From contig CADBOE010000115.1 of NCBI GenBank assembly GCA_902796205.1, positions 1-33,554 of the forward strand: DNA of 33,554 nt, read 5' to 3'. Made by a program: the position numbers and the translations under genes. The notes beneath the pieces were generated by a model that was not told where the DNA came from, made no database searches, and saw nothing but the letters and a program-made list of their open reading frames with translations. This document shows, in pieces, positions 168-33,554 of the stretch (its first letter is position 1; each line of letters opens with the position of its first letter). The stretch comes from an uncultured Ruminococcus sp. Lineage in GTDB: Bacteria; Bacillota; Clostridia; UBA1212; UBA1255.

Positions 168-1376
168 ATGATAGTACTTGTTGTAAACGCGGGAAGCTCA
201 TCGCTGAAATATCAGCTCTTTGATACTGCCGGTAATTCCGTCCTGGCAAAAGGTATCTGCGAACGGATCGGTATCGGCGGCGAGATCACGCATAAAATGA
301 GCGGGCGCGACGATTATAAACGCGCCGTGGAAATGAAAGATCACACCGAGGCCACGAAGGTGCTTATCAGAACACTTACGGACCCTGCGGTCGGCTGCAT
401 AAAAGACATGAGCGAGATCGAGGCGGTCGGGCACCGGATAGTTCACGGAGGCGCGTATTTCAGCGAATCAGTGCGCGTTACGGACGAAGTCATAGCGAAG
501 CTCGAGCTATGCCGCGACCTTGCCCCGCTCCACACCGGAGCGCACCTGATGGGGATCAGAGGCTGCGTTGCCGCCATGCCTGAAACGCCGCAGGTGCTCG
601 TTTTTGACACCGCGTTCCACCAGACGATGCCGGATTACGCGTACACCTACCCGATCCCGTATGAAATGGCGCAGGAATACCGGATCAGAAGATACGGCGC
701 GCACGGAACGTCGCACAGATACGTCGCGGGTGAGATGTGCGGGATACTCGGAAGGATCGAAGGCACGAAGATCGTTACGTGCCACCTCGGAAACGGCTCG
801 TCGATATCCGCCGTGAAGGACGGTAAGGTCATCGACACGTCCATGGGATTCACGCCTCTCGACGGTCTCGAAATGGGAACGAGATGCGGCGCGATCGACC
901 CCGCCATAGTTCCGTTCATAATGGACAAAAAAGGATTTACTCCGGATGAAATGAGCTCATTCATGAATAAGGAATGCGGGCTGCTCGGCGTTTCCGGCCT
1001 TTCTCCCGACTGCCGCGACCTCGGCGAAGCCGTCAAAGCGGGCAACGGACGCGCGGCGCTCGCCGTCAATATTCTTACGTATCAGATCAAAAAATATATC
1101 GGCTCATACGCTGCGGCGATGAACGGCCTCGACGCTGTCGTTTTCACGGCGGGGATCGGCGAGAACCGCGACGAGATAAGAGCGGCCGCCTGCCGCGATA
1201 TGGACTGGCTCGGAATAAAGCTCGACGAAGAGATCAACGGGCGCACCAAGAAGCAGGGCGACAACGTATGTATTTCCGCCCCGGACTCGAAGGTGCTCGT
1301 TTACGTCATACCAACAAACGAGGAACTTGTCATCGCATCCGACACTGAGCGGATAGTAAAGGGAGGAAACTGCTGA
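168..1376 (+). CDS. ackA: acetate kinase
   Basis: Motifs VNAGSSSLKYQ, GHRIVHGG, LAPLH, VFDTAFHQT, CHLGNGSS, DTSMGFTPL, FTAGIGEN, IPTNEE. Confidence 0.97.
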   Translation: MIVLVVNAGSSSLKYQLFDTAGNSVLAKGICERIGIGGEITHKMSGRDDYKRAVEMKDHTEATKVLIRTLTDPAVGCIKDMSEIEAVGHRIVHGGAYFSESVRVTDEVIAKLELCRDLAPLHTGAHLMGIRGCVAAMPETPQVLVFDTAFHQTMPDYAYTYPIPYEMAQEYRIRRYGAHGTSHRYVAGEMCGILGRIEGTKIVTCHLGNGSSISAVKDGKVIDTSMGFTPLDGLEMGTRCGAIDPAIVPFIMDKKGFTPDEMSSFMNKECGLLGVSGLSPDCRDLGEAVKAGNGRAALAVNILTYQIKKYIGSYAAAMNGLDAVVFTAGIGENRDEIRAAACRDMDWLGIKLDEEINGRTKKQGDNVCISAPDSKVLVYVIPTNEELVIASDTERIVKGGNC

Positions 1377-3988
1377 TGCAAAAAACGATTGACGAAAGGA
1401 ACAGGAACGGAACGGCCGCCGTCAGGTTCGGCGCCTGGCTGCTGGCGGCAGTGATGATCTTCACGCTCGCCGGAATAGGCGGCGCGCGCGGAAGCCGGGT
1501 AGAAGCTGCCGGAAGCGACACGTATTCTCTCGGCGGGGGCGGAGGCTCCGGCTCCGTGTCAGTCCTCAAGGGAGAAAGCATTTACGTGCAGATCAAAGTT
1601 TCGGCGGCGTTCAGATCGCTGAGCTTCGATATTCATGGCTCCGGAGAAGGAAAAAAAGCGACAGTCTCGCTTCATAGATGGAACAAAAACATTATCGACA
1701 GCGGAAACGGCGCCCCCGTTGCTTCGACGGAGATCTCCGGCTGGGAGTCGGGCGGACAGGTCTCAATCTCAGGCGACGGATTTGACGCCGGGGAATACGT
1801 CGTGAAGTTCACGCTCAACGAAGCGGAAAGCGCGAAGGGAAAATTCGGAATAAAGCTCGAAAAGAAAAGCCGCACGGGAGTCGCCGTCTTCGGCAAGGGT
1901 TACTCCACGGAAGGCTCCCCGAAGGGACAGATCGTGCTCAGCGCAGCCGGCGGCGATCCGTTCGTGAAAGTATCCGCGAATAAGGATTATCCCTATCATC
2001 AGGCCCCGCCGGCGTATCAGTTTACGGACGATACCGCTGTCGTAAAGCTCGGCATCGACCCCACGCAGTGGAGCGCGGTGGACGGACTCGGGCGCACGGT
2101 TCCGGGCTACCGGGAGGTCGGCGCGAAGAAAGACAAGGTCGTCGGAATGTTCTACTGGACGTGGCACACGGGCAATATGCAGTCCAAGGCCGTCAACGTC
2201 AACAATATTATCCTTGAAAACCCCGACGCCATCCACGACTACAAGCACAAGATCTGGAAGAACAACTCGGTCGGATCGTATTTCTGGAACGAGCCGATCT
2301 ACGGATATTATACCGAAATTGACGAATACGTTCTCAGAAAGCACGCCGAGCTTCTTGCCGACGCGGGAGTCGATTTCGTGCTGTTCGACTGCACGAACGG
2401 CGACCTTACCTGGGAGGACGCCTACCTCAATCTTCTGAAGGTCTGGTCCGAGGCGCGCGAACAGGGCGTCCGCACCCCGCAGATCGGCTTCATGATGCAG
2501 TTCTGGTGGGATGACAAAAACACGCCTTCCTCGCTGAAGCAGGTCTACGACGCCATTTACCGCGACGGAAAATATCAGGATCACTGGTTCTACTGGGAGG
2601 GAAAGCCGCTCATCATGAGCATGCACGGCGGCCTTAACAAAAACGATCTGCTCGAGGAGGAGATCCGCCAGTTCTTCACGTGGCGTCAGGGCGTTCCCTC
2701 GTACTGGGAGGGCGACGGAGACGACAGCATGTGGGGCTGGCTCCACGTATATCCCCAGGCCGTCTACAGAAACGCCGACGGCACCGTGGAGCAGACTACC
2801 GTAGGCGTCTGCATGAACGCCGACTGGTCGACGCGACAGCTCTCCGCTCAGAACGGCGAGCACAACATGGGCCGCAGCTATACCGAGCAGAAGGATTTCA
2901 GTTATTCGTACGATTACAGAGGAAAAACGGTAAATGTTGACAAAAATATAGAGAACGTCTCGTTTTACGGACTGAATTTCCAGGAACAATGGGATTTCGC
3001 GATGTCCGTTGACCCGGAGATCGTATTCGTCACCGGATGGAACGAGTGGATAATGGGCCGTTTCGAAGAATGGATGGGCGTGAAGAACGCGTTCCCGGAT
3101 CAGTTCAACGACGAGAATTCGCGCGATCTGGAGCCGTCCAAGGGTGCGCTCAAGGACTATTATTACTACCAGCTCGTCGCCAATATCCGCCGCTTCAAGG
3201 GCGCTTCTCCCGTGAACGTTCAGGAGACCGCGAAAACCATCGACATCAACGCCGGCGCGGAGCAGTGGAACGATCCCGGTATCGTAACGTATAACCATTA
3301 CACCAAAAACACTTACGAGCGCAACGCGAGAACGTGGGGCGTGAAATACGTCGGCGATCCGATCCGCAACGATTTCAGAACGGCGAAGGTCTCTTTTGAC
3401 GCTGACAATATCTATTTCTACGTCGAAACGGAAGAGCCTGTGACGGCCTCCACCGACGCGAACTGGATGCGTCTCCTTCTCGACACTCAGGCGGCAACGG
3501 CCGATTCGAAGGACTGGGAGGAATTTGAATATATCATAAACCGCGAATCGCCTTCCGGCACGACGCTGACCGTCGAAAAGAGCACCGGCGGCTGGAACTG
3601 GGAAAAGACGGGCGACGCCGATTTCACCGTCAGCGGAAATATCATGCAGATCCGCGTTCCGAGAACGGCTCTCGGCCTCACGGATACGGACTCGTCACTG
3701 TCGTTCGGATTCAAGTGGTGTGACAACAATCTCACCGGCGGCGATATAATGACGCTCTATACCGAAGGCGACGCCGCTCCCGGCGGACGGTTCACGTTCG
3801 CTTTCACGTCGGACGCCAAAGCGGCCGCGCCGGCTTCTTCCGATCCCGGATCGGATCACGGCGGTACTGACGGAAAGCCTTCCGGCAACAATTCGCTTAC
3901 GGTCCTTTCCATTGTCGCCGGAGGCGCGGCTGTGGCAGCCGTTGCGGCCGCGGTCGTGGTGGTGACCGGGAAAAAGAAGAAATCGTGA
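1376..3988 (+). CDS. secreted, C-terminally membrane-anchored glycoside hydrolase-like protein (GH99/GH71-like barrel plus beta-sandwich domains)
   Basis: N-terminal hydrophobic signal; VGMFYWTWH, FWNEPIYGYY, LRKHAELLADAGVDFVLFD and IVFVTGWNEW motifs; Ser/Gly/Asp linker, TM helix and KKKKS tail; TGATG overlap with ackA. Family is inferred. Confidence 0.7.
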   Translation: MQKTIDERNRNGTAAVRFGAWLLAAVMIFTLAGIGGARGSRVEAAGSDTYSLGGGGGSGSVSVLKGESIYVQIKVSAAFRSLSFDIHGSGEGKKATVSLHRWNKNIIDSGNGAPVASTEISGWESGGQVSISGDGFDAGEYVVKFTLNEAESAKGKFGIKLEKKSRTGVAVFGKGYSTEGSPKGQIVLSAAGGDPFVKVSANKDYPYHQAPPAYQFTDDTAVVKLGIDPTQWSAVDGLGRTVPGYREVGAKKDKVVGMFYWTWHTGNMQSKAVNVNNIILENPDAIHDYKHKIWKNNSVGSYFWNEPIYGYYTEIDEYVLRKHAELLADAGVDFVLFDCTNGDLTWEDAYLNLLKVWSEAREQGVRTPQIGFMMQFWWDDKNTPSSLKQVYDAIYRDGKYQDHWFYWEGKPLIMSMHGGLNKNDLLEEEIRQFFTWRQGVPSYWEGDGDDSMWGWLHVYPQAVYRNADGTVEQTTVGVCMNADWSTRQLSAQNGEHNMGRSYTEQKDFSYSYDYRGKTVNVDKNIENVSFYGLNFQEQWDFAMSVDPEIVFVTGWNEWIMGRFEEWMGVKNAFPDQFNDENSRDLEPSKGALKDYYYYQLVANIRRFKGASPVNVQETAKTIDINAGAEQWNDPGIVTYNHYTKNTYERNARTWGVKYVGDPIRNDFRTAKVSFDADNIYFYVETEEPVTASTDANWMRLLLDTQAATADSKDWEEFEYIINRESPSGTTLTVEKSTGGWNWEKTGDADFTVSGNIMQIRVPRTALGLTDTDSSLSFGFKWCDNNLTGGDIMTLYTEGDAAPGGRFTFAFTSDAKAAAPASSDPGSDHGGTDGKPSGNNSLTVLSIVAGGAAVAAVAAAVVVVTGKKKKS

Positions 3989-6288: not shown

Positions 6289-7242
6289 TCAGCCGAGGTC
6301 GACCGGTTCGGTTTCGTTTTCGTTTCCGGTTTCGGATCCGGTTTCGTTGTCCTTTGCCTGATCGTTATTCGCCGTGTCGGTGTTGTCGGGAAGATGCACG
6401 AGGCCTTCCTTTACGCCTCTCGTCTGGCAGGTCTGGCACATGCGCGTCTTGCCGTTTTCGACGGCGGCCTGTGAAGTTCCGGTAAGAAGATCGGGCGAAT
6501 TGTTCAGGTGACCGCAGTCTTCATAGAGATGATATACGGTCCCGCTCTTCGTCCAGTAAACGGATTCGTAAACCTCGCCGGTCTCGATGCCGGCCTCTTC
6601 AAGAACCTGCTCCTGAGAAACGGGATTCCAGTCGATTCCGGAGAGGACGCCAACGGCAAGCAGCACGACGGCAACGCCCGCGGCGATCGCTTTCGACTTT
6701 CCGTCGGCTTTCTTGTCGGTGAGAGCGAAAATAATGAACGGAACGAACGCAACGACCGCGATGATAACGCCAAGATTGTTCTGGATCCAGAATTTTGCCT
6801 TGTTCTTTTCAGACGCGGGATCAAGATGGTTTGCTTTTTTCCACAGCTGCGAACCGATAACGACGAGGATGAGGTCGAGCGCGAGGCAGACGATCCACGA
6901 AATGGTCCAGCCGGGATTGTCGGCAATGAATTTCCAGGGGATGACTTTTTTGAAGCAAAGGATGGCCAGAACTTCAAAACCGAGCCCAAGCAGCCACAAA
7001 ATAACCGCGATTATTCTGTAGGGCTTCGCGTTTTTGTTCATGATCCCGAGCAGATCCTGTTTTCCGACGCTTTGCTGCTCCACGTGTGTGATATTGTGCT
7101 GCACCCGGGCTTTCGTGCCGGCCGATCTCGTGTCGTTTCCTCCGGCGGTGCGGGTCTTCTCCGCTTCTTTTTTTGCTTTTACAGCTTCAAGCGCTTTTTT
7201 CGCGGCTTCGGCTGCCGCGGAATTCTGATTTTTTGTTGCCAT
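6289..7242 (-). CDS. hypothetical 4-TM membrane protein with C-terminal His/Cys metal-binding domain
   Basis: AGGAG RBS before ATG 7242 (MATKNQ); four hydrophobic segments; VYWTKSGTVYH..C..L...CxxC motif. Confidence 0.8.
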   Translation of the reverse strand: MATKNQNSAAAEAAKKALEAVKAKKEAEKTRTAGGNDTRSAGTKARVQHNITHVEQQSVGKQDLLGIMNKNAKPYRIIAVILWLLGLGFEVLAILCFKKVIPWKFIADNPGWTISWIVCLALDLILVVIGSQLWKKANHLDPASEKNKAKFWIQNNLGVIIAVVAFVPFIIFALTDKKADGKSKAIAAGVAVVLLAVGVLSGIDWNPVSQEQVLEEAGIETGEVYESVYWTKSGTVYHLYEDCGHLNNSPDLLTGTSQAAVENGKTRMCQTCQTRGVKEGLVHLPDNTDTANNDQAKDNETGSETGNENETEPVDLG

Positions 7243-7282
7243 CTTGTCTGCTCCTTTTCTTTTGTGTAGAAATAGTGTCTGC

Positions 7283-7311
7283 ATTCTAACATAATGCCCG
7301 GCGGCAGTCAA
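7283..7311 (-). promoter_or_regulatory. sigma-A promoter of the membrane protein gene
   Basis: Minus strand TTGACT, 17 bp spacer, TG-n-TAGAAT. Confidence 0.7.
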
Positions 7312-7317
7312 TATCCG

Positions 7318-7702
7318 TGCAACGGGGGACAGACCCCGGTTTTGACCCTGCCCCTGTGAGGATGCAACGGGGGACAGACCCCGGTTTTGACCCTGCCCCC
7401 GGGAGGATGCAACGGGGGACAGACCCCGGTTTTGACCCTGCCCCCGGGAAGGTGCAACGGGGGACAGACCCGGGTTTTGACCCTGTCCCCGGGAGGATGC
7501 AACGGGGGATAGACCCGGGTTTTGACCCTGTCCCCGGGAAGGTGCAACGGGGGACAGACCCGGGTTTTGACCCTGTCCCCGGGAGGACGCAACGGGGGAC
7601 AGACCCCGGTTTTGACCCTGTCCCCGGGAAGGTGCAACGGGGGACAGACCCGGGTTTTGACCCTGCCCCCGAGAGGATGCAACGGGGGACAGACCCGGGT
7701 TG
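7318..7702 (+). repeat. tandem array of 45-bp hairpin (REP-like) units, 8.5 copies
   Basis: Unit TGCAACGGGGGACAGACCCSGGTTTTGACCCTGYCCCCGGGARGR starting at 7318, 7363, 7408, 7453, 7498, 7543, 7588, 7633, partial at 7678; internal inverted repeat GGGGACAG/CTGTCCCC. Confidence 0.97.
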
Positions 7703-12061: not shown

Positions 12062-13788
12062 CAGCGAATTACCGTTATCTCTGCGGGAGCTTCGATCCTG
12101 GATACGATCTCGCCCTTCGTGTTGTATTTGTGAATAACGTGTATCGTGCCGTAAGGCGTCGGATAAGTGCCTTCCGCGAAGCGGAGATCCCCGAGCCTCG
12201 GAGCGATGCGGACGGTCTTGCAGCCGGGCTCAACGGGCGTGATTCCGAGCACGTATTTCGAGAGGAACGCGGCGGGGCCGGACGCCCAGCCGTGGCACAG
12301 GCTGTGGCGGAAGCCGACGTAGCAGTACGCGCCGTAATCGCCGTGAAGGTCTTTTACTCCCTCGGGGACGAGCTCGTCGATCCTGCCGGAGCCCTCGAGC
12401 CATTCGAGATTGAAGTCCTCCCAGAACGTTGTCGCTCCGCGGTCGAGCATCGCTCCCCAGAAATCGCGTATCATATCGAGGGCGGCGCCGGTCTCGTCCA
12501 GCTCGGCGAGAGCCTGAAGAACGTAGAAGCCGAAGAAAGTGGAAATGCGGTAGGCGCCGTCTTTTTTTATGACGTTGTCAGCCAGTGCGCGGGCCGCGGA
12601 GCCGTCCGCGATACCGGCGAGGATGAGCATTGCCGCCGCCTGCTTGTTGCCGTTCGGGTCGGGCATATGAGAGCGGAGCTTTTCCGAGGCCTCGCGGCAC
12701 ATTGCCGCCGCTTCGGCTTCGCCGAGCTCGTCGCACAGGAACGCTCCGGCGTCGAAGCACATTTTCAGCATACCCTGATAACCTGCGTGGATGGCGGCGG
12801 GATCGTTGTCGCTGGGCCAGTCGAGAAGGCGTCGGCCGGGGAGCTTTTCGCTGCCGTCGTTACCGACGTAATCGCGGAAAAATCCGAGAAGCTTTACGAG
12901 GTATTCGCGCTGCTCCGCCAAGTATTCCTTGTTTCCGTTCTGCATGTACCAGCCGTAATGGACGAGCACCCACCATACGGAATAGCCGGATATCCCGCAC
13001 ATCATGAGCGGAAGCGGAGATTCGTCGCGCGCCAGGTCGAGGCTCTTTTCGACGCTCGGATCGTGACCGAAAACGGCCTGGATGGTGGAGGTTTCGGGGT
13101 GAATGTCGCCGATCCACACGAGCCGGTCGCGCTTTATGCCGTCCCAGACGTATTCCTGCATGTTGAGGTGAACGGTGTACGCGGCGGTGTTCCAGATGCG
13201 GTCGAGCCTTGCGTCGTTTGAGTGGAACGAGCCCTTGTATTCGAGCTCGCGATATACGAATATGCCGTCGACGGCCATTATCCTGATCGAGGCACCCGGG
13301 TCGAGAAGGTCGATCCTGGCGAACCTGAATCCGGAAGGCCCGAGCTCAGGCATGCTGTAGTGGCCGACGTCGATAATCTGGTCGCGGTTAATGTGATCGT
13401 TCGTGGCGTTCTGCTTTCCGCCAAGCTCGGACATCGCCTCCTGGGCGGATTCGCCGAAGCGGACCCTCAGCTTCACGCGGGAGGGATTCGGGCTGTGAAT
13501 GAATATTTTCAGATTTCCGTGAAATTCCACGCCGTAATCGATGAGGATCGCCGCGGGCGAAAAACCGTCGCCTTCGGGACCGTTGGCCATTGTCATCATT
13601 TTCTGTATATTGAAGTGGATCTGTTCGGGATGAGGCTCGAGCAGGCATTCCTCTCCGGTGACGCCGGGCGTTTTCCAGAGAATACGCTTCGGCAGCATGA
13701 AGCGGCGAACGCGCGGATCGGGCTCGGTTCTGCAGAGCGTTTCGGGCGCACGGATCCCGGCGGGAACGAAGTTGGGATTCTGGTTCAT
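12061..13788 (-). CDS. alpha-L-rhamnosidase-like protein (GH78, short form)
   Basis: DGIKRDRLVWIGD, GATTFWE, SLCHGW, PTPYGTI; GGAGG RBS. Confidence 0.85.
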   Translation of the reverse strand: MNQNPNFVPAGIRAPETLCRTEPDPRVRRFMLPKRILWKTPGVTGEECLLEPHPEQIHFNIQKMMTMANGPEGDGFSPAAILIDYGVEFHGNLKIFIHSPNPSRVKLRVRFGESAQEAMSELGGKQNATNDHINRDQIIDVGHYSMPELGPSGFRFARIDLLDPGASIRIMAVDGIFVYRELEYKGSFHSNDARLDRIWNTAAYTVHLNMQEYVWDGIKRDRLVWIGDIHPETSTIQAVFGHDPSVEKSLDLARDESPLPLMMCGISGYSVWWVLVHYGWYMQNGNKEYLAEQREYLVKLLGFFRDYVGNDGSEKLPGRRLLDWPSDNDPAAIHAGYQGMLKMCFDAGAFLCDELGEAEAAAMCREASEKLRSHMPDPNGNKQAAAMLILAGIADGSAARALADNVIKKDGAYRISTFFGFYVLQALAELDETGAALDMIRDFWGAMLDRGATTFWEDFNLEWLEGSGRIDELVPEGVKDLHGDYGAYCYVGFRHSLCHGWASGPAAFLSKYVLGITPVEPGCKTVRIAPRLGDLRFAEGTYPTPYGTIHVIHKYNTKGEIVSRIEAPAEITVIR

Positions 13789-13822
13789 GTTGACCTCCTG
13801 GATATTAGGATTTGATGGGCCA

Positions 13823-13852
13823 ATGCTAACACTTTTGCGCGGTCGTTGTCAA
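13823..13852 (-). promoter_or_regulatory. sigma-A promoter of the GH78-vanZ-radical SAM operon
   Basis: Minus strand TTGACA, 18 bp spacer, TG-n-TAGCAT. Confidence 0.65.
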
Positions 13853-13870
13853 CGGATTTGTGCCCGTTCC

Positions 13871-14139
13871 GGGGCTGTCCCCCGTTGCATCTTTGCCAGG
13901 GACAGAAGGCGAAACGAGGGTCTGTCCCCCGTTGCATCTTTGCCGGGGACAGTGGTGAAACGAGGGTCTGTCCCCCGTTGCATCTTTGCCGGGGACAGAG
14001 GGCGAAACGAGGGTCTGTCCCCCGTTGCATTTTTGCCGGGGACAGAAGGTGAAACGAGGGTCTGTCCCCCGTTGCATTTTTGCCGGGGACAGAGGGCGAA
14101 ACGAGGGTCTGTCCCCCGTTGCATGTCCCCGGGTGCACC
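13871..14139 (-). repeat. tandem array of 47-bp hairpin (REP-like) units, about 5.4 copies plus head segment
   Basis: Plus-strand unit GGGTCTGTCCCCCGTTGCATYTTTGCCGGGGACAGARGGYGAAACGA at 13871, 13918 (46 bp), 13964, 14011, 14058, partial 14105; reverse-complement homologue of the 7.3 kb unit. Confidence 0.97.
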
Positions 14140-14179
14140 TCGTTGCCGCGTCGAGCTTCTCCGCATTTCAAATTAACAG

Positions 14180-14209
14180 TAGACACGGGGCGCCCGCGGT
14201 CGCTATAAT
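14180..14209 (+). promoter_or_regulatory. putative sigma-A promoter of the PHP gene
   Basis: TAGACA, 18 bp spacer, TATAAT (14204-14209). Confidence 0.6.
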
Positions 14210-14263
14210 GGCGGTACCGTAAATCAATATCCCGACGAGGGATCGGATCCGGGCAAATAATAG

Positions 14264-14363
14264 TTTTCCACAGCGAGACTGTTGAAAACCCGCGGGCGGT
14301 TGTGGAAAAACCTGCGGGAAATTCCGGGGAAAGTGTGGAAAATAAAAAGGAAAAGGTGGAAAA
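14264..14363. promoter_or_regulatory. DnaA-box-like cluster
   Basis: TTTTCCACA 14264-14272; TGTGGAAAA 14301-14309 and 14334-14342; one-mismatch copies at 14280-14288 and 14355-14363. Confidence 0.6.
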
Positions 14364-14364
14364 T

Positions 14365-15318
14365 ATGAGGAAATATCTGCTGCCGGCGGACGGGAAGCCG
14401 ATCAAGGCAAATCTCCATTGTCACAGTACGTATTCGGACGGGAAATATACCGTCGAACATCTGAAGAAAATTTATGAAGAAAAAGGTTACGGCGTGGTCG
14501 CTTTTTCGGATCACAACCGTCTTCTTCCGCACCCGGAGCTCAGGAGCGACGGGTTCGTCCCGCTCACCGCGACAGAGATCGACGTCAACGGGCCGGAGGA
14601 GCGCACGTATCATCTTAATTTCTTTTCGGCGGATCCGGACAGGACCGAATTCCCGGAGATAGACAGGATTTACGGCGTCGACGGAGTTAACGAAATAATC
14701 CGCAGAGGCAACGAGGCCGGCTTTCTCTGTCAGTACAACCACCCCCGCTGGTCGCTCCAGACGCCCGAGGACTTCACCGGACTGCGCGGACTCTGGGGTT
14801 TTGAAGTTTTCAACACCGGCTGCGAGGTGTCGATGTGCGACGGCTGGGGAGATTACGAATACGAAGTGATGTGCCGGGACGGGAAGGAACTGCCGGTCGC
14901 CGTTGCCACCGACGACAATCACAACTGGCCGGTAGAGCCGGGCGATGCGGGCGATCCCTACGACGACTCGTTCATGGGCTGGACGACGATAATTGCTCCC
15001 GAGCTGTCGTATTCCGCGGTCATTGACGCGATGAAAAAAGGCAACTGCTACGCGACCACGGGACCGGAAATAACCGGACTTTACGTCGAAAACGAGAAAC
15101 TTCACGTCGAATGTACGCCCGCGAAGGCAATATTCATACGTTTTGAGAGAAGACGTTCGGACTACAGGAGAAGCAACGGCCGCGACATCACCGGCGCCGA
15201 ATTCGACGTCAGCGGCGACTACCGGTTTTTCCGCCTTGAGATACACGACGGCGAGGGCAACAAGGCGATGACAAGGGCCTACAGCCGCGACGAGATATAC
15301 GGAAATGCCGACCGCTGA
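14365..15318 (+). CDS. PHP-domain metallohydrolase
   Basis: NLHCHSTYSDG, FSDHN, ATEI, YNHP, FEVFN, TDDNH; start placed at MRKYLL because the upstream extension is translated DnaA-box DNA. Confidence 0.85.
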   Translation: MRKYLLPADGKPIKANLHCHSTYSDGKYTVEHLKKIYEEKGYGVVAFSDHNRLLPHPELRSDGFVPLTATEIDVNGPEERTYHLNFFSADPDRTEFPEIDRIYGVDGVNEIIRRGNEAGFLCQYNHPRWSLQTPEDFTGLRGLWGFEVFNTGCEVSMCDGWGDYEYEVMCRDGKELPVAVATDDNHNWPVEPGDAGDPYDDSFMGWTTIIAPELSYSAVIDAMKKGNCYATTGPEITGLYVENEKLHVECTPAKAIFIRFERRRSDYRRSNGRDITGAEFDVSGDYRFFRLEIHDGEGNKAMTRAYSRDEIYGNADR

Positions 15319-15324
15319 GCACGG

Positions 15325-15374
15325 ATTATTTCCCGGGAAATAATTTGTCTTCCGAATGAAACTGCCTGTATCAT
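15325..15374 (+). promoter_or_regulatory. perfect 20-bp palindrome abutting a putative promoter
   Basis: ATTATTTCCCGGGAAATAAT (15325-15344), then TTGTCT, 18 bp spacer, TATCAT. Confidence 0.5.
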
Positions 15375-15451
15375 ACGTGCCGCGAAGCACGTGCAGCAGC
15401 AGAAATAATTCGGAAAGGCGGTGCCCCGCGCACGGGCGGGGCGAAAACAAA

Positions 15452-16159
15452 ATGCTTGTTGATTTGATCGAGTTCAGATTCGGAGGCGCGGCAGATACGC
15501 GCGGAGAGAAAGAGGTCATTTTCGAAGGGTGGTTCCCGGAGGGAACGGAAAAAGAAACGGTGATACGGCTCCTGAACACGGAGCCGCCCGGGTTCGGGAA
15601 AAGGAAAAAATGCGGCCGGGACGACAGCGGTTGCGGAGACGACTGCGAAAAATGTATGTTCGGACCTGCAGAAACGGTCAGCAGAGTCGTTGAGTTTTAC
15701 TACGGCGACGGGACCCGGGAAAAGTGCGACACCGAAGGCTCGCCGGCGGCGCCGGAGTACGAGGCAGGGAAGGCGCAGCCTGTATTTATGGAAAAAACGG
15801 GACACAGAATGCTTGTGCTGCTGCCGGGCGAGGCTCCGTACTGCGCCGTCATACAGGACAGACTCGGCGAGCTGCAGCGCTGTGTCGGGGGACTTATAGA
15901 GATCACATATCCGTTTGACGACGACTGCGTTGTTATCGGAAACGAAGAAGCAAAGCTGATCGGTATGGCGGGAAACCGCCGGATAAACGGCGAAATATAC
16001 GCGGGGCCGCTTCTTATCGCCGGCGACGACGGAGAGGGGGGCCTGTGCAGCCTGACCGAAGAGCAGATCGGCAGATACGCGGGAGCTTTTGCGGAGCCGG
16101 AATATATTTCCGACGCGGAAGTGGAGAGAAGCATAGGTTTTACGATATACGCGGTATAG
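15452..16159 (+). CDS. DUF3846-like domain protein with Cys-rich N-terminal region
   Basis: C-terminal LQRCVGGLIE..YPFDD..NEEAKL..NR..I.AG..SLTEEQI..F.EPE pattern; start uncertain. Confidence 0.72.
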   Translation: MLVDLIEFRFGGAADTRGEKEVIFEGWFPEGTEKETVIRLLNTEPPGFGKRKKCGRDDSGCGDDCEKCMFGPAETVSRVVEFYYGDGTREKCDTEGSPAAPEYEAGKAQPVFMEKTGHRMLVLLPGEAPYCAVIQDRLGELQRCVGGLIEITYPFDDDCVVIGNEEAKLIGMAGNRRINGEIYAGPLLIAGDDGEGGLCSLTEEQIGRYAGAFAEPEYISDAEVERSIGFTIYAV

Positions 16160-16246
16160 GGAACATACGGCAGAATATGTGGCGGCGCCGGTGAAAAAGG
16201 CGTCGCGGAAAACGGAAAATGACAATACGGAAAGGCGCGGTTGATC

Positions 16247-18700
16247 ATGGACAGATTCAAAGGATTCCTGAAGGCAAAACCTGTTTTTATCGGAGATTAT
16301 GACGGAAAAGGGAATATGCAGGTAGGATTCTGCAGGCTCATCCGCGGTCTCCGTAAAGGAGACAGGGTAAACGCGGCTGTGGCGGCAGGTACGTTTTACC
16401 GGCTGTTTATCAACGGCCGGTTTTCCGCTCACGGGCCTGCCCGGGCGGCCGAGGGTTATCTTCGCGTCGATGAGCTCGACGTGAGTTCTTATATCGCGGA
16501 CGGCGACAATTTTTTCGCGTTCGAGGTGTGCCATTACGGCTTTCCGTTCGGCGGATATTCAAACGACGTCGCCCCGGTGGACGGTCTTCTGCAGGCCGAG
16601 ATCACGCGGCCCGGAAAAAGCGGGGACGTGACCGAGGTGCTCGACGCCACGTCGGCAGACTGGAAGGCGAGGGTCGTCGACAGCCGGGTGAGAGCGACCG
16701 AAAGAATATCTCATTGCCGCGAAAATACTGAGAATTATATACTTAAAGAGGGCTGGAGCGACTGGCGTACCGATCCGGCGCTCTGCACCGCGGGGACAGT
16801 CGAGCTCGGGGACAAATATGTGCTCCTCCGGCGCGGGATGGCGCTTCCATCGTTCGCGCGCGAGGGCGGAGCCAGACTTACGTCCTTCGGAGCGGCAAGG
16901 ACGGACGTGGACAAAGAAGTCGGAGACGACTGGTTTTCCGCGTCGATAAGAGATTATCTTAAAAACGTTCCGGAGCGTCCCGTGCTCGATTACAGGCGGA
17001 CGGAGGATCTGCCCGCCCCGGCGTCGATGTTGTTCACGGGAACAGCGGGCGGCGGGATCGATATAAAAGGCATCGCTCCCGGCGAGACGGCGTATTTTCA
17101 ATACGACATCGGAAAACCGCGCGTCGGTTTTATCTCGCTGACCGCGGAAACGGCGGCTCCTTGCGTGCTCGACGTGGTACACCTTGAGAGCATGAGCCTT
17201 TTTGACCGCAAAAACGAGATTTCCGGCGGAGCGAATCCGGTGGCGCGGCTGCATCTTCCCGCCGGGAGAACGGAATTCGTGTTTTTTGAGCCCGTTCTCG
17301 TCCGCTATCTCAAATTTTACGTGCGGCCGGAAGCGGAAAACGGCGCCGCGGGCGTAAAGCCCGGCACCGGCACGCCGTGGTTCTCGATGAACGCCCCGGA
17401 GATCATCGATTATTCGGCGCCGGATAACGGGAACGGCAGTTTTCTGTGCAGCGACGAGGACGTTAACCGCCTTTACGAGGCCGCGCGCCTTACGCTCAAG
17501 CTGAATACGCTCGATATTTTTATGGATTGTCCGGAGCGCGAACGCGGCGGCTGGCTGTGCGATTCCCTCTGGACCGCGAGAGCCTTCAGGCATATGAAGG
17601 GAGACTGTTCGGTCGAAAAGGCGTTCATCGAAAATTTCCTTCAGACGGACGCGGAAAAGATTTGGCACGGCTTTTTCCCGGAATGCTATCCCGGAACGAA
17701 GCCTGATTTTTCTGCCTGCCCGGGCCTTCTCACGTGGAGCTTCTGGCTGATGCTGGAGCTTTGCGAATACGTCCGCAGAAGCGGCGACACGGAATTTGCC
17801 GCCGAATATGCCGGCCGCGTCGATGCGTTTGTCCGCGGCAGCCTCGAGCTTCGGGGCGAATCCGGATTGCTCGAAAATACGCCGTGGCTGTTTATCGACT
17901 GGTCGATGTCGAACGAATACTGCCGGCCCGTTTCGACCGCGGCGAACGCCCTTTACGCGCTGATGCTCCGGCGTCTCGGCGAGCTCTACGGAAACGGCTC
18001 GTGGAAGGAGATCGCGGCGCAGATAAGATCCGTACTTCGGGAAACGCTCGCCGGAAGCGACGTGAACCCTTCCGACACCGGAGGATTTTTAGACGACGGA
18101 CTCGGTTTTTCGGACGGAAAGCTTTCGAAACGCGGATATTATTCCGAAAGCGCTCAATATACGATGATATGGTCGGAGCTGTTCGACCGCGGCGAAATGC
18201 CTGATTATTTCTGGAGGATCGTCCACACGACCGGCGCGGACAGGGATTTTGAATGCGACACGAAGCTGGGCAAGGCCGGACTGTTCATCGGACTCGGCAT
18301 ACGGCTCGATATGCTGTCCAAACTCGGCGAGTACGAAAAAATGCTGAGCGAAATGAAAAAGATATTCATGCCGCAGCTTTCGGAAGGGCCCGGTACGCTC
18401 TGGGAAACGCAGGATCCCCTGAACACAAGCCGCTGCCACGGCTTCTGCGCTCACGCCGGAGTGCTGCTGACAAGGGATATTCTCGGTCTCGGCGAGCCGG
18501 ACGAGCTTACCAAAACGGTCAGGATCGCCCCTCATCCGTGCGGTCTCCGCTGGGCTCGCGGCGTGGTCAATACCTCAGACGGCCTTATTTCCCTTAGCTG
18601 GCGGAATCCGCGCGGCGAAAGAGGCGACCGCACCGCCGTTCTCACGGATATGGAGCTTTCGCTTCCCGCCGGCTGGAAGGCGGTTTTTCCCGAGGAATGA
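16247..18700 (+). CDS. alpha-L-rhamnosidase-like protein (GH78)
   Basis: YRLFING..GPAR N-terminal domain, FMDCPERERGGWLCD, FIDW, GTLWE, SRCHGF; start at 16241 or 16247. Confidence 0.82.
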   Translation: MDRFKGFLKAKPVFIGDYDGKGNMQVGFCRLIRGLRKGDRVNAAVAAGTFYRLFINGRFSAHGPARAAEGYLRVDELDVSSYIADGDNFFAFEVCHYGFPFGGYSNDVAPVDGLLQAEITRPGKSGDVTEVLDATSADWKARVVDSRVRATERISHCRENTENYILKEGWSDWRTDPALCTAGTVELGDKYVLLRRGMALPSFAREGGARLTSFGAARTDVDKEVGDDWFSASIRDYLKNVPERPVLDYRRTEDLPAPASMLFTGTAGGGIDIKGIAPGETAYFQYDIGKPRVGFISLTAETAAPCVLDVVHLESMSLFDRKNEISGGANPVARLHLPAGRTEFVFFEPVLVRYLKFYVRPEAENGAAGVKPGTGTPWFSMNAPEIIDYSAPDNGNGSFLCSDEDVNRLYEAARLTLKLNTLDIFMDCPERERGGWLCDSLWTARAFRHMKGDCSVEKAFIENFLQTDAEKIWHGFFPECYPGTKPDFSACPGLLTWSFWLMLELCEYVRRSGDTEFAAEYAGRVDAFVRGSLELRGESGLLENTPWLFIDWSMSNEYCRPVSTAANALYALMLRRLGELYGNGSWKEIAAQIRSVLRETLAGSDVNPSDTGGFLDDGLGFSDGKLSKRGYYSESAQYTMIWSELFDRGEMPDYFWRIVHTTGADRDFECDTKLGKAGLFIGLGIRLDMLSKLGEYEKMLSEMKKIFMPQLSEGPGTLWETQDPLNTSRCHGFCAHAGVLLTRDILGLGEPDELTKTVRIAPHPCGLRWARGVVNTSDGLISLSWRNPRGERGDRTAVLTDMELSLPAGWKAVFPEE

Positions 18701-29111: not shown

Positions 29112-30503
29112 TCACTTTTCTATCCAGCTCTCGTCGGAAGGATCGTCGCGGAAAGCGATCAGCCTTCTGACGTCCTCAGGCGCTATATATCCGCTTCCGG
29201 CGGCAACGGCGGCGACCGTGTCGAAATCGGTCAGCGAAACGTTCCGCACGTTCGCCTCGGCCAGGCGGTCAATTCCCTTTTTCATGCCGTACGTAAATAT
29301 CGACGCTATTCCGAGCACGACGGCGCCGGCCTCGCGGAGCACGTTCACGACCTCGATGACGCTTCCGCCGGTGGAAATGAGATCCTCGATAACGACGACC
29401 TTCTGTCCCGGTTCGAGGCGCCCCTCGATCTGGTTCTTGCGTCCGTGATCCTTCGATCCTGATCTGACGTAGCCCATCGGCAGCCCGAGCAGGTGTCCCG
29501 CGATGGCCGCGTGTGCGATCCCGGCGGTAGACGTTCCCATCAGCACTTCGGCGTCCGGATAATACTTTTTCACCGTCTGAGCGAGCCCCTGCTCCACGTG
29601 AAGCCGGACCTCCGGCGCGGTGAGCGTGAGGCGGTTGTCGCAATAAACGGGACTTTTTATGCCGCTCGCCCATATGAACGGCTCGTCAGGGCGGAAGAAA
29701 ACGGCTTTAATTCCGAGAAGATCCGAAGCGATCGTTTTGCTTGTCACCGGGTCGGCGCACGAAGAGACCGGCGCGGTATCACGCGCGTTGTCCGCGGGTG
29801 CGCTGACGCCGAATTCCGAGAGAGCCCGCGCGTAAGCCGCGGCGGGATCCGGGACTCCGGTTATCGGACGGCCCATCACTATGTAGTCGGAGCCGAGCCC
29901 GGCGGCCCCGGCCGGCGTGGTGACGCGCTTCTGGTCGCCGGCGGCGTTGTCGTCGAAACGGACGCCGGGTGTCACGGTCAGGAAGTCTTCTCCGCAGGCG
30001 GAATGGACGAGCGCCGCTTCGAGAGGGGAGCAGACGACTCCGTCGAGACCGGCGTCGCGGGCGTTTTTCGCGTATCGCATGACGACCTCGCTCATCGGTT
30101 CGCGGATGAGTATCTCGTTTTCAAGCGCGGTCTGGTCGGTGGACGTGAGCTGGGTGACCGCGAGAAGGATCGGGCGGGTGCCGTCGGGTCGCGTAAGACC
30201 TTTTACGGCGGCTTCCATCATTGCGCGCGTTCCGGCGGCGTGGAGGTTCACCATGTCCACGTCGAGCTTCGACAGAACGGCCATCGCTTTTCCGACGGTG
30301 TTCGGTATGTCGTGAAGCTTCAGATCGAGAAATATCCTGTAGCCGCGCGCTTTTATCTCGCGCACGACGTCGGGACCCTCGGCATAAAACAGCTCCATTC
30401 CGATCTTGAGGAAGGGGCGCGATGAACTGCCGAGCCTGTCAAGAAAAGCGAGTGTAGACGCCCTGTCGGGGAAATCGCACGCTATGATAACGTCTTTGCC
30501 CAT
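29112..30503 (-). CDS. pyrF-pyrE: fused orotidine-5'-phosphate decarboxylase / orotate phosphoribosyltransferase
   Basis: N-half IFLDLKLHDIPNT, VTPGVR, GRPI; C-half WASGIKSPVYCDNR, VVVIEDLISTGGS; one uninterrupted 463-aa frame. Confidence 0.95.
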   Translation of the reverse strand: MGKDVIIACDFPDRASTLAFLDRLGSSSRPFLKIGMELFYAEGPDVVREIKARGYRIFLDLKLHDIPNTVGKAMAVLSKLDVDMVNLHAAGTRAMMEAAVKGLTRPDGTRPILLAVTQLTSTDQTALENEILIREPMSEVVMRYAKNARDAGLDGVVCSPLEAALVHSACGEDFLTVTPGVRFDDNAAGDQKRVTTPAGAAGLGSDYIVMGRPITGVPDPAAAYARALSEFGVSAPADNARDTAPVSSCADPVTSKTIASDLLGIKAVFFRPDEPFIWASGIKSPVYCDNRLTLTAPEVRLHVEQGLAQTVKKYYPDAEVLMGTSTAGIAHAAIAGHLLGLPMGYVRSGSKDHGRKNQIEGRLEPGQKVVVIEDLISTGGSVIEVVNVLREAGAVVLGIASIFTYGMKKGIDRLAEANVRNVSLTDFDTVAAVAAGSGYIAPEDVRRLIAFRDDPSDESWIEK

Positions 30504-30518
30504 ATTTATATGCTCCTT

Positions 30519-31448
30519 TCAGCTTAAAGCCGCTCCGATTATTTCATTTATATCTTTTACGCCGAGCCGCGACAATACCTCCGGCAGCTCACGCACGATC
30601 CTGAGGCTCGCGTACGGATCAACGAGATTCGCCGCTCCGATCTCCACGGCGGTCGCCCCGCACATCATCATTTCGATCACGTCCTCGGCCGATGAAACGC
30701 CGCCCATGCCCACGACGGGGATCTTTACCGCTTTTGCCGTCTGAAAGACCATGCGGAGAGCGACGGGGAAAATGGCCGGGCCGGAAAAGCCGCCGGTCGC
30801 GTTCGCTATGACGGGCTTGCGTTTCCTCAGGTCGACGCGCATCCCGAGCAGCGTGTTTATGAGGCTGATGCCGTCCGCGCCCGCGGCTTCGCACGCCTTC
30901 GCGATGACGGTTACGTCCGTCACGTTCGGCGAAAGCTTCGCTATCAGCGGTTTTTTCGTGACCCTCCGTACGGCGGAAACGACGGACGCCGCCGCGTCGG
31001 GATCGGTGCCGAAGCTCATGCCGCCCCCGTGAACGTTGGGGCAGCTTATATTTATCTCAAACCAGCCGATCTGCGGCTCCCCGTCGAGCTCGGCCGCCGT
31101 GAATACGTAATCGTCCGTCGAAAAGCCGCTGATATTGGCCATGACGGGCTTGCGGAAAACCTCGCGCAGCCGCGGCAGCTCGGTCTCCTTTACGGCACGC
31201 ACGCCGGGATTTTGCAGTCCCACCGCGTTTATCATGCCGGCGGTGCATTCGGCGATGCGCGGCGTCGGGTTTCCGAAGCGCGGCTCCCGCGTCGTTCCTT
31301 TGAAGGAAAACGTGCCGAGCTCGTTTATGTCGTACAGTCCGGCAAATTCATATCCGTAGCCGAAGGTTCCGGAGGCGGGGATAACGGGATTGTCGAGCGT
31401 TACGCCGCAAAGGACGACGGCCGTTTTAGGCGCGGTCAGTTTTTCCAT
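30519..31448 (-). CDS. pyrD: dihydroorotate dehydrogenase, family 1B catalytic subunit
   Basis: ASGTFG, NAVGLQNPG, EINISCPN, AKLSPN, INTLLG; GGAGG RBS before ATG 31448. Confidence 0.95.
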   Translation of the reverse strand: MEKLTAPKTAVVLCGVTLDNPVIPASGTFGYGYEFAGLYDINELGTFSFKGTTREPRFGNPTPRIAECTAGMINAVGLQNPGVRAVKETELPRLREVFRKPVMANISGFSTDDYVFTAAELDGEPQIGWFEINISCPNVHGGGMSFGTDPDAAASVVSAVRRVTKKPLIAKLSPNVTDVTVIAKACEAAGADGISLINTLLGMRVDLRKRKPVIANATGGFSGPAIFPVALRMVFQTAKAVKIPVVGMGGVSSAEDVIEMMMCGATAVEIGAANLVDPYASLRIVRELPEVLSRLGVKDINEIIGAALS

Positions 31449-32173
31449 ATTATCTCCTCCTTCCTGAGCACGGGGCCTTCCCTGCATATGCGCTTGCTTC
31501 CCGTGACCGTAAGGCAGCTGCAGCCCATGCACGCCCCGAAGCCGCAGCCCATGCGTTCCTCGAAGCTGAACTGGCCGGATGTGGCGGCGGCATTGAAAAC
31601 GGCCCTGAGCATGGGCTCGGGACCGCAGGTGTAAAAATATGAATAGCCGGAAGGCAGGTGGTCGGTAACGAAGCCTTTTTTTCCGGCGCTGCCGTCAACG
31701 GTCACGACGGTGACGCCGTTCCCGCAGAGACGTCGGAATTCATTTTCGCCGAACACGTCGCCGGCCGTGTTGAAGCCGAGGACGACGGACGGTTTCGCGC
31801 CGCGGGCAACGAGCTCGCGGCACAGCCAGTAGAGAGGCGGCACGCCGGCGCCTCCGCCGATGAGGAGGGGAGAGGGGCCGGAGGCGGACAGGTCATAGCC
31901 GTTGCCGAGACCTGTCAGGACGTCGAGCGCGGTTCCGGGGGCGAGGCGCGAGAGGGCCAGCGTGCCGGCGCCGACGGTTTTATATATTAAGGTGAGAGTT
32001 TTGTTTTCAAGGTTGCATACGGACAGGGGGCGCCTGAGATAGAAGCCTGAAAGGCGTATATTGACGAACTGGCCGGGCCTCTCCACCGCGGACGTGTCGC
32101 CGTTCAGTCTGATAAGATACACGTTGTCCGCGATCCGTCTGTTTTCGGTTATTTCGAAAAGCCCCTGTTTCAT
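31436..32173 (-). CDS. pyrK: dihydroorotate dehydrogenase electron transfer subunit
   Basis: PGQFV, LRRPLS, GGGAGVPP, TCGPEPM, EERMGCGFGACMGC..C [2Fe-2S] motif. Confidence 0.95.
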   Translation of the reverse strand: MKQGLFEITENRRIADNVYLIRLNGDTSAVERPGQFVNIRLSGFYLRRPLSVCNLENKTLTLIYKTVGAGTLALSRLAPGTALDVLTGLGNGYDLSASGPSPLLIGGGAGVPPLYWLCRELVARGAKPSVVLGFNTAGDVFGENEFRRLCGNGVTVVTVDGSAGKKGFVTDHLPSGYSYFYTCGPEPMLRAVFNAAATSGQFSFEERMGCGFGACMGCSCLTVTGSKRICREGPVLRKEEIIWKN

Positions 32174-32586
32174 CAGCTGTTTTCCTTTCCGCCGTTGCCT
32201 TCGCCGTTGTCTTCGCCGTTGTCTCCGCCGTCCGGCGAGAGCAGGTTTTTCCGCGTCTTTCCGGCGCGCCTCAGCAGTCTGAACGGGATGACCAGCAGCG
32301 CGACAATTCCGGCGACCGCGGCGAGCAGCACGAGCACGATCAGCGCCACGATCCAGGCGGGGAGAACTTCGTTGCCTTCGTTTTCGGAAAGCTGTGCTCC
32401 CCCGGTGGTTCCGGACGGCGCTTTTTCAGGCGCGGATAAAACGCTTTCGCCGGCATAGACCACCGCCGGATTTTTCTGCGCCGCTTCGGCTTTCATTTTC
32501 GGGGTCAACGCCGCGGCAGCGAGCAATATCGCCGCAATTACCGCCGCTGCTATGGCTGCGAATGCCGCCGGTGCTGTTTTTTTCAT
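32173..32586 (-). CDS. hypothetical small membrane protein at the head of the pyr operon
   Basis: MKK plus hydrophobic N-terminus, second TM, GAAAGGA RBS; TGATG overlap with pyrK. Confidence 0.65.
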   Translation of the reverse strand: MKKTAPAAFAAIAAAVIAAILLAAAALTPKMKAEAAQKNPAVVYAGESVLSAPEKAPSGTTGGAQLSENEGNEVLPAWIVALIVLVLLAAVAGIVALLVIPFRLLRRAGKTRKNLLSPDGGDNGEDNGEGNGGKENS

Positions 32587-32673
32587 CGCGCTTTTCCTTT
32601 CCGGCTCCGTTCAGTTTTCCGCCGTGCTCCGGCGTGTTCCTCAGCCGCCGCTCCGTTCGCAGCGGTCAACGCC

Positions 32674-32702
32674 ATTATATATTATCCGGGCTTCTGTTGC
32701 AA
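32674..32702 (-). promoter_or_regulatory. sigma-A promoter of the pyr operon
   Basis: Minus strand TTGCAA, 17 bp spacer, TATAAT. Confidence 0.7.
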
Positions 32703-32782
32703 TTATAAAACGCCTGATTTCCGGGCTGTTTCATAGCTGTTTCAAAGCAGCGAATTCCGGCCTGCCGCCGGATCGCGGCGAG

Positions 32783-32830
32783 GGTGCAACGGGGGACATG
32801 CAACGGGGGACAGACCCGGGTTGCGGGGTT
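32783..32830 (+). repeat. compact copy of the REP-like family
   Basis: GGTGCAACGGGGGACATGCAACGGGGGACAGACCCGGGTTGCGGGGTT. Confidence 0.9.
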
Positions 32831-32931
32831 CATCCTCGTTGATGCCGAAATGGCGAAAGTCGTTTATTTGCAAGGTTTTTTCGGTTTTATTTCCCGATAT
32901 TTCCTTAAATTTCCCGAAAATTCCCGGGCAC

Positions 32932-33019
32932 GGATGCGACTGCAACTGGTGGGGCAACGGGGGACAGGGATGCGACTGCAACTGCAACTGATGGGGCAAC
33001 GGGGGACAGACCCGGGTTT
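32932..33019 (+). repeat. two-unit variant array of the REP-like family
   Basis: GGATGCGACTGCAACTG.TGGGGCAACGGGGGACAG at 32932 (36 bp) and 32968 (42 bp, 6-bp duplication), then ACCCGGGTTT. Confidence 0.9.
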
Positions 33020-33286
33020 CCTGACGGGTGATTTCAGCTGCATTTGGGCAAAAACGGCATCTGCGGCTGAAATTTCAGAATGGTTTGGTTTCAGCTGCAT
33101 TCCGCCTCACAGCACAAAAGACAACATAAAACGCGGTACAAACCAAAGAATCCTAAAAACCACCAAAACGACTCGATTCATAAATCCGAAGCTGCACTCA
33201 AAACAGCTTAAACCCACTCAAAAATGAAATGGATTTTTCGGTATTTCGCTTGAATGACTTTCTTATATGAACATCGTAAAAAATCG

Positions 33287-33316
33287 TTGCGAAAAAAAAC
33301 AAAGATATGTTAAAAT
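33287..33316 (+). promoter_or_regulatory. candidate cas9 promoter
   Basis: TTGCGA, 18 bp spacer, TG-n-TAAAAT, with A-rich upstream DNA. Confidence 0.5.
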
Positions 33317-33349
33317 CCCAAAGTCAGCAGGAACAAACTGCGCACAAAA

Positions 33350-33466
33350 TAAAAAACCTCCCGAGGGAGGAGCGCACACTGCGCGACCGGATAAACCGGT
33401 GGAATCGGATTCAAAAAATCCTTATTTGAACTTGTAGTGCGAATTTATAGGGGTCTATAAACCACG
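33350..33466 (-). ncRNA. tracrRNA (type II-A-like)
   Basis: Minus strand anti-repeat ..CACTAC-AAGT-TCAAAT-AA, nexus GGATT/AATCC, hairpins ACCGG/CCGGT and GCGCA/TGCGC, terminator CCTCC-CTCG-GGAGG-TTTTTT; ends approximate. Confidence 0.85.
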
Positions 33467-33471
33467 AATGT

Positions 33472-33500
33472 ATGTTAACAGTTTTTGCGGAGGTTGTCAA
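33472..33500 (-). promoter_or_regulatory. tracrRNA promoter
   Basis: Minus strand TTGACA (33500-33495), 17 bp spacer, TG-n-TAACAT (33477-33472). Confidence 0.75.
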
Positions 33501-33501
33501 C

Positions 33502-33554
33502 ATGAAAAAAGAGAAAAAAATTCAAAAAATTGACAGTTATTATCTCGGCCTTGA
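33502..33554 (+). CDS. cas9: probable Cas9 N-terminus (truncated by window end)
   Basis: GGAGG RBS 33489-33493; MKKEKKIQKIDSYYLGL then GA(n), matching the start of the RuvC-I YxLGLD motif; adjacent tracrRNA. Only 17 full codons visible. Confidence 0.75.
   Translation, partial: MKKEKKIQKIDSYYLGL

Follow-up and report, generated by a model that had tools for sequence, protein, structure and literature searches.

A tracrRNA gene and the first cas9 codons at a contig end of an uncultured Ruminococcus sp.: the probable left end of a type II-A CRISPR-Cas locus

Introduction

In CRISPR-Cas systems of type II, the tracrRNA pairs with the repeats of the pre-crRNA, RNase III trims the resulting duplex, and the dual guide directs Cas9 to PAM-flanked DNA; Cas1, Cas2 and Csn2 add spacers. 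Among the Cas9 orthologs of clade III, those called Esp2 (Eubacterium sp.), Tpu (Treponema putidum) and Vpa (Veillonella parvula) were characterized by Gasiunas et al. in 2020 (PMC7606464, in its accessible part). The type II-A locus of Faecalibaculum rodentium, which encodes FrCas9 (PDB 9JWK/9JWN; PMC12926199), contains cas1, cas2 and csn2; its tracrRNA gene lies upstream of cas9, with transcription demonstrated to run opposite to that of the cas genes (PMC8931148). In Streptococcus pyogenes, Workman et al. described autoregulation by tr-L, for which the criteria are a long tracrRNA with its own lower stem and a match of 11-15 nt to Pcas9, and reported that the position of Pcas9 relative to the tracrRNA varies (10.1101/2020.05.21.102756, accessible part). 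In S. agalactiae, a short antisense RNA overlaps the tracrRNA 3' end (PMC4448216). Metagenome surveys list such loci by the thousands, with 17,173 type II loci in one of them (PMC11043407).

We analyzed a stretch of 33,554 nt (hereafter, the window), the entire contig C115 of an uncultured Ruminococcus sp. assembly (2.06 Mb, 241 contigs, 88.6% complete). We conclude that its right end very probably holds the gene of a tracrRNA and codons 1-17 of cas9, and that together they make up the left end of a CRISPR-Cas locus, likely of type II-A, the rest of which is missing from the assembly. This missing remainder would consist of the rest of cas9 and, presumably, cas1, cas2, csn2 and an array. Both the tracrRNA and the Cas9, the latter by way of the full-length protein P0003 described below, place the locus in type II.

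Judged by its relatives and by type II biology, the tracrRNA would be transcribed leftwards. It would pair with 36-nt repeats that begin with GTTTGAGAGTAGTG, forming a lower stem of 7 bp, then a bulge and an upper stem. RNase III would then trim the tracrRNA-repeat duplex, and Cas9 loaded with the tracrRNA and crRNA would cut PAM-flanked foreign DNA.

Comparison with characterized systems

The locus resembles the three clade III systems in several ways, as far as the accessible part of PMC7606464 describes them. Their repeats begin with GUUUGAGAGUAGUG, like those of the group to which the window belongs, and are 36 nt long (34 nt for Tpu, as listed); their tracrRNA lower stem is GAGUUCAAAU, as in the window; and their proteins, at 1,345-1,398 aa, are comparable to P0003 at 1,375 aa. 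The tracrRNA of Esp2 also shares the CACAGUGUGUG hairpin ahead of the terminator with the window. The window differs from these systems in its upper anti-repeat, its longer nexus stem and its unnamed protein, and no PAM is transferable from Esp2, Tpu or Vpa because the PAMs given for them in that text differ among themselves. Since Esp2, Tpu and Vpa, which have this repeat start and this tracrRNA lower stem, are already characterized there, the locus is an ordinary addition to a thoroughly studied group of type II CRISPR systems and would work like those three. The "possibly uncharacterised Cas9" of the original prediction is right in that the protein is unnamed and too generous in that its group has been characterized biochemically.

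The best PDB match to P0003 is FrCas9, aligned over the full length (E 8.7e-206), with 689 bits; the large set of Cas9/Csn1 entries that comes next reaches about 432 bits. The layout is also the same as that of the FrCas9 locus in the accessible description, with a tracrRNA gene upstream of, and opposite to, cas9. In contrast, the PI domain of P0003 is far from that of FrCas9 and aligns weakly with it (E 5e-6). By our count on this alignment, only N1137 is kept among six PAM-contact residues of FrCas9, while Y1198, R1213, T1214, K1321 and Q1334 differ; because five of the six contact residues differ, the NRTA PAM of FrCas9 should not be assumed for P0003.

Organization of the tracrRNA gene

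The tracrRNA gene, of about 115 nt, lies on the minus strand at 33351..33465, with a 5' end near 33465 predicted from the -10 box. Its predicted promoter, TTGACA-17-TAACAT, occupies 33472..33500 (-) and matches 10 of 12 consensus positions, with the -35 box at 33495-33500 and an extended -10 box at 33472-33477. The distance from -35 box to core is 72 nt in the window and 63-76 nt in 31 of 32 cas9-linked loci. Downstream of the predicted start on the same strand is the anti-repeat (33424..33461), which pairs with a natural repeat of the same class in a co-fold and consists of an upper stem (33434-33461), an AAGT bulge (33430-33433) and the lower stem TCAAAT (33424-33429), the last followed by AA. 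A nexus-like hairpin at 33407..33421 (-) was predicted by folding; its stem of 6 bp, compared to a 3-bp consensus in its group, is kept in the metagenome locus L063, where the loop is changed. The first 3' hairpin (33386..33400, minus strand, 5 bp, from the MFE fold) keeps 4 of its 5 pairs in L063, again with a changed loop, and the second (33372..33384, minus strand, 5 bp with a GUG loop) is defined by covariation across 31 loci. A terminator scan placed an intrinsic terminator at 33351..33370 (-), with a 5-bp stem and 4-nt loop at 33357-33370 and a U6 run at 33351-33356 that is present on the minus strand only. All parts of the minus-strand RNA of about 115 nt that had been called from the letters alone (promoter, anti-repeat, AAGT bulge, TCAAAT-AA, nexus, two hairpins and U-tailed terminator) were thus located in the window.

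The 126-nt minus strand folds with an MFE of -36.7 kcal/mol (z = -3.63), and none of 200 shuffles folded equally well. We also observed that the free anti-repeat at 33438-33461 (-) folds on itself as a UUUAUAG-ACCC-CUAUAAA hairpin, the opening of which would be needed for repeat pairing; L063 keeps the same palindrome.

Conservation of the tracrRNA

An Rfam scan of 30000-33554 (E<=5) matched no tracrRNA family, and its sole match was a chance mir-503 elsewhere. As Rfam had no matching family, we trained a covariance model (R1) on 29 further tracrRNA loci, a set that excluded both the window and L063, its closest relative. R1 places the tracrRNA at 33344-33461 (-) with 62.4 bits (E 2.2e-10), a match unique in the window and in the genome, although this score is partly built in because most training loci were chosen by a shared 19-nt core. 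The second 3' hairpin sits outside that core, and across 31 loci 98% of its cells are paired with 17 two-sided changes, a result reached by 0 of 500 shuffles; controls slid along the alignment gave at most 80% paired. A search of the window for the 17-nt core at up to 3 mismatches gave a single occurrence, compared to 0.05 expected.

The metagenome locus L063 is 83% identical to the window tracrRNA over 161 nt, with most changes in the 3' part falling in loops and linkers, and the tracrRNA there precedes a Cas9. Among 49 genome loci with the 19-nt core, 31 have a Cas9-type, LGLDIG-like ORF directly downstream. The other 18 lack a downstream Cas9 motif: four are apparent chance matches in unrelated taxa, and the remainder are contig ends, other layouts or missed motifs. 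The record titles of the genome loci with the core mostly name Clostridia, Oscillospiraceae or Eubacteriales.

Three DNA matches (L003, L004 and L065) were discounted as homologues, as they covered the AT-rich RBS or start region only. Several loci with the core (L017, L021, L048, L051, L054 and L062) vary in layout or have a start offset by the array finder at the anti-repeat, and in L017 and L051 the anti-repeat is apparently continuous with spacer and repeat sequence.

The cas9 start and protein P0003

An ATG at 33502 opens the ORF MKKEKKIQKIDSYYLGL, followed by GA at the contig end, so that the window holds the first 17 codons of cas9 plus 2 nt (33502..33554, plus strand) and stops right at the RuvC-I aspartate. 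The ribosome-binding site GGAGG at 33489..33493 (+) has the same motif ahead of cas9 in L063 and in the same-genus genome G007. The original prediction had put an RBS-led ORF about 40 bp from the tracrRNA, and the interval from predicted tracrRNA start to ATG indeed measures 37 nt, with the tracrRNA promoter and the RBS inside it.

A protein search with residues 1-300 of the L063 Cas9 gave 4,019 matches, the best 120 of which were listed. Among 121 proteins, those listed matches included, the N-terminus of P0003 is identical to the window's residues at 17 of 17 positions, and the runner-up agrees at 9 of 17. It is very likely that the window ORF is the start of this full-length, 1,375-residue Cas9, a link made by protein identity only, over the just 17 codons that the window holds. 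P0003 continues the 17 codons with DIGTDSVG and is a full Cas9, as had been proposed for the ORF; a continuation as a non-Cas9 protein such as a sugar kinase, named beforehand as the outcome that would speak against this assignment, did not occur. The homologous junction in G007 continues as YYLGLDIGTDSVG, and that in L063 continues as a Cas9 scoring 800 bits on TIGR01865.

P0003 is unnamed and scores 854 bits on TIGR01865. It contains five Pfam domains (bridge helix (BH), REC, HNH, RuvC and PI) and intact LGLDIG, VEMAR, IDHIYP, NKVLV and DLHHAKDA motifs. Its RuvC and HNH catalytic residues, placed by motif position, are D18, E801, D887/H888, N903, N912, H1019 and D1022, which we take to correspond to those of SpCas9. 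The protein forms a single-member unnamed ENA cluster and is encoded on 3 ENA contigs, the longest of 13,671 nt. Its closest relatives among the matches listed are P0002 (55% identity) and P0004 (53%), and the Cas9 of L075, the closest complete genome locus, is 46.6% identical. An intact, unnamed 1,375-aa Cas9 at 55% identity to the closest of these, together with its own tracrRNA, is ready for a PAM screen. A plasmid tblastn returned distant Cas9s only (28-32% among the best rows listed), and the relative L063 was all that a metagenome scan for P0003 DNA yielded. For residues 1-168 of P0003, a single-sequence AlphaFold model had a pLDDT of 50, too poor for use.

Repeat, array and adaptation genes

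Because the array, cas1, cas2 and csn2 were not found in the assembly, the repeat, csn2 with the subtype, and the PAM have to be read from relatives. As no spacers were seen, we offer no PAM prediction. The locus order in relatives is tracrRNA-cas9-cas1-cas2-csn2-array, with 36-nt GTTTGAGAGTAGTG repeats, and the two relatives that were tested by HMM, L043 and L075, have cas9, cas1, cas2 and csn2 all above cut-offs. In 26 loci with the core and at least 3 copies of the repeat, which had been chosen by the GTTTGAGAGTAGTG repeat-start motif, repeat and anti-repeat of the same locus pair through a lower stem of 7 bp and a bulge in every case (26/26), with energies of -18 to -51 kcal/mol.

Arrays whose repeats begin with the predicted 27 nt are present in 3 of 401 same-class genomes, exactly in two and with one mismatch in the third, and these array repeats pair with the window anti-repeat at -28 to -31 kcal/mol. 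The co-fold of repeat and anti-repeat that had been suggested as a check bore out the pairing: the natural repeat of genome G114 and the window anti-repeat reach -30.7 kcal/mol, far below the -11.9 ± 3.0 kcal/mol of 1,000 shuffles, of which the best reached -23.3 kcal/mol. No natural repeat that we found pairs along the full window anti-repeat; roughly the last 9 bases of the repeat are not covered. The array repeats of the same class support the 5' 27 nt of the predicted repeat. The prediction had also named the lack of a matching repeat in the genome as counting against it, and this literally holds for the assembly, where periodic repeats are present but none has the predicted motif; we attribute the lack to the contig break. 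A viral-contig scan gave 0 matches to the predicted repeat, and no cognate repeat was found in contigs from runs X3, X4, X8, X10, X11 and X5; runs X8, X10, X11 and X5 yielded just one relative's partial contig, in X11.

We noted an unusual array in another relative, L076 (G029:C8:81000-93249): this type II-A array has more than 40 repeats with very uneven spacers (about 14-39 nt), and the L076 anti-repeat pairs poorly with its own repeat (-18 kcal/mol).

Alternative explanations

The tracrRNA and cas9 start could be real and yet belong to the remnant of a locus that has decayed, either cut short or split by a mobile element, and that confers no immunity. We consider this improbable. Consistent with a remnant, a search of all 241 contigs found no further part of cas9, no cas1 or cas2 and no cognate array (csn2 was not found either, in a family search that had no positive control), and Cas9 was seen in only 1 of 7 same-genus genomes. 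Moreover, a contig from run X4 is identical to the window over 33468-33554 and at 33468 gives way to foreign sequence. The latter recurs at the end of contig C99 in the genome analyzed here, so disrupted alleles occur in close strains. Against a remnant, the window ORF is open through the last base of the contig, the X4 record runs 58 letters beyond the window end, 3 ENA contigs encode an intact protein of 1,375 aa that shares this N-terminus, every RNA module and promoter box is intact, and the cas9 of G007 likewise breaks at a contig end.

The X4 record is a single contig of 531 nt at depth 6, without differences to the window over the shared stretch, and the first 30 letters of its foreign part equal the AT-rich end of C99 (L096, G000:C99 19692-19776). 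The junction looks like the end of a mobile element inserted between the -10 box of the tracrRNA and its predicted start, and such an insertion would likely separate both the tracrRNA and cas9 from their promoters in the X4 strain. This C99-end element had no match in 24 same-family genomes.

It is considerably less probable still that the locus, while type II, falls in a different subtype (II-C-like, lacking csn2), or that it is an orphan tracrRNA-cas9 pair with no adaptation genes. Such a reading would fit csn2, cas1 and cas2 not having been seen for this locus, but the size of P0003 and its best structural relatives are those of type II-A (FrCas9), and L075 has csn2. We give next to no credence to the idea that the ORF encodes an RNase H-fold protein other than Cas9 (a sugar kinase, transposase or IscB) beside some other RNA: although just 17 codons are visible and Rfam lacks a tracrRNA match, the exact N-terminal match to a full Cas9 effectively refutes it, the closest RNA homologue precedes a Cas9 at 800 bits, and the covariance-model match is unique in the genome.

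Promoter layout and possible regulation

A consensus scan predicted a cas operon promoter, TTGCGA-18-TG-TAAAAT, at 33287..33316 (+), which matches 9 of 12 consensus positions plus the TG and faces cas9 across the tracrRNA gene. To judge from the sequence, cas9 is likely transcribed from this site. Because the promoter-like site that faces cas9 lies past the tracrRNA terminator, the leader would be antisense to the tracrRNA; it likely measures about 180 nt and spans the tracrRNA in full. The terminator could be passed by plus-strand transcription, as the U-run is on the minus strand only.

Promoter-like sites were counted by consensus scan, a method that predicts promoters but does not prove them, in 33 related loci, de-duplicated from 39, with expected values from base shuffles. 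A sigma-70-type site facing cas9 was present just past the tracrRNA terminator in 19 of the 33 loci (5.2 expected), or in 12 (1.1 expected) at a stricter cut-off, and 14 of the 33 lacked such a site; the scoring had been loosened after a first pass that gave 22 of 39 (7.1 expected). On the opposite strand of the same zone there were 7 (6.3 expected). In the interval between tracrRNA and ATG, sites numbered 5 on the cas9 strand (7.0 expected) and 30 on the tracrRNA strand (7.2 expected).

The tracrRNA gene of S. pyogenes is likewise divergent from, and close to, cas9, as described in the accessible part of Workman et al. Unlike in S. pyogenes, the predicted cas9 promoter lies beyond the tracrRNA and we found no tr-L signature in 33200-33554, because this region has no repeat-like lower stem of a long-form tracrRNA and just 37 nt separate the tracrRNA start from the ATG. 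Between the Pcas and Ptracr regions no match exceeds 8 nt, compared to the 11-15 nt of the tr-L criterion.

We put forward tentatively, and as a doubtful proposal, that throughout this gut-Clostridia Cas9 group the cas and tracrRNA promoters flank the tracrRNA gene and point towards one another, and that the leader is a full antisense of the tracrRNA. Cas9-free tracrRNA would pair with the leader to form an RNase III substrate and the promoters would interfere, coupling the Cas9 level to tracrRNA occupancy independently of tr-L. A regulatory role of this layout is speculation. Our literature search found no description of a cas9 leader antisense to the tracrRNA; most subscription journals and bioRxiv supplements were outside its scope, so novelty is unproven. 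The face-to-face promoters are a testable candidate for what limits Cas9 expression in type II-A loci without tr-L, and the wider interest of the locus is confined to this predicted layout.

Genomic context

Left of the tracrRNA-cas9 start, on the minus strand, is a pyrimidine operon (Pfam domains DHODB, DHO_dh, OMPdecase, OTCace and PyrI). Across the final 300 nt of the window, GC content drops from some 60% first to 39%, then to 28%. Runs X3 and X4, both with bovine gut as the recorded source, yielded near-identical pieces of the window end. Six ORFs of 137-870 aa in the window have no Pfam match at E<=0.001, among them 1376-3988 (+), 15371-17668 (-), 6289-7311 (-), 13785-14405 (-) and 32173-32586 (-).

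In the same-genus genome G007 (L077, G007:C153), the tracrRNA-cas9 module follows an RNA-polymerase-like gene (read from its N-terminal sequence only) and is not beside the pyr operon, and the three same-genus genomes examined at pyrK (L078, L079 and L080) have other genes upstream of it. The tracrRNA-cas9 locus looks like a recent acquisition at the pyr-adjacent site. We also observed a family of GC-rich palindromic repeats with copies at 7319-7691, 13876-14122 and 32786-33019, four of which lie directly left of the tracrRNA region.
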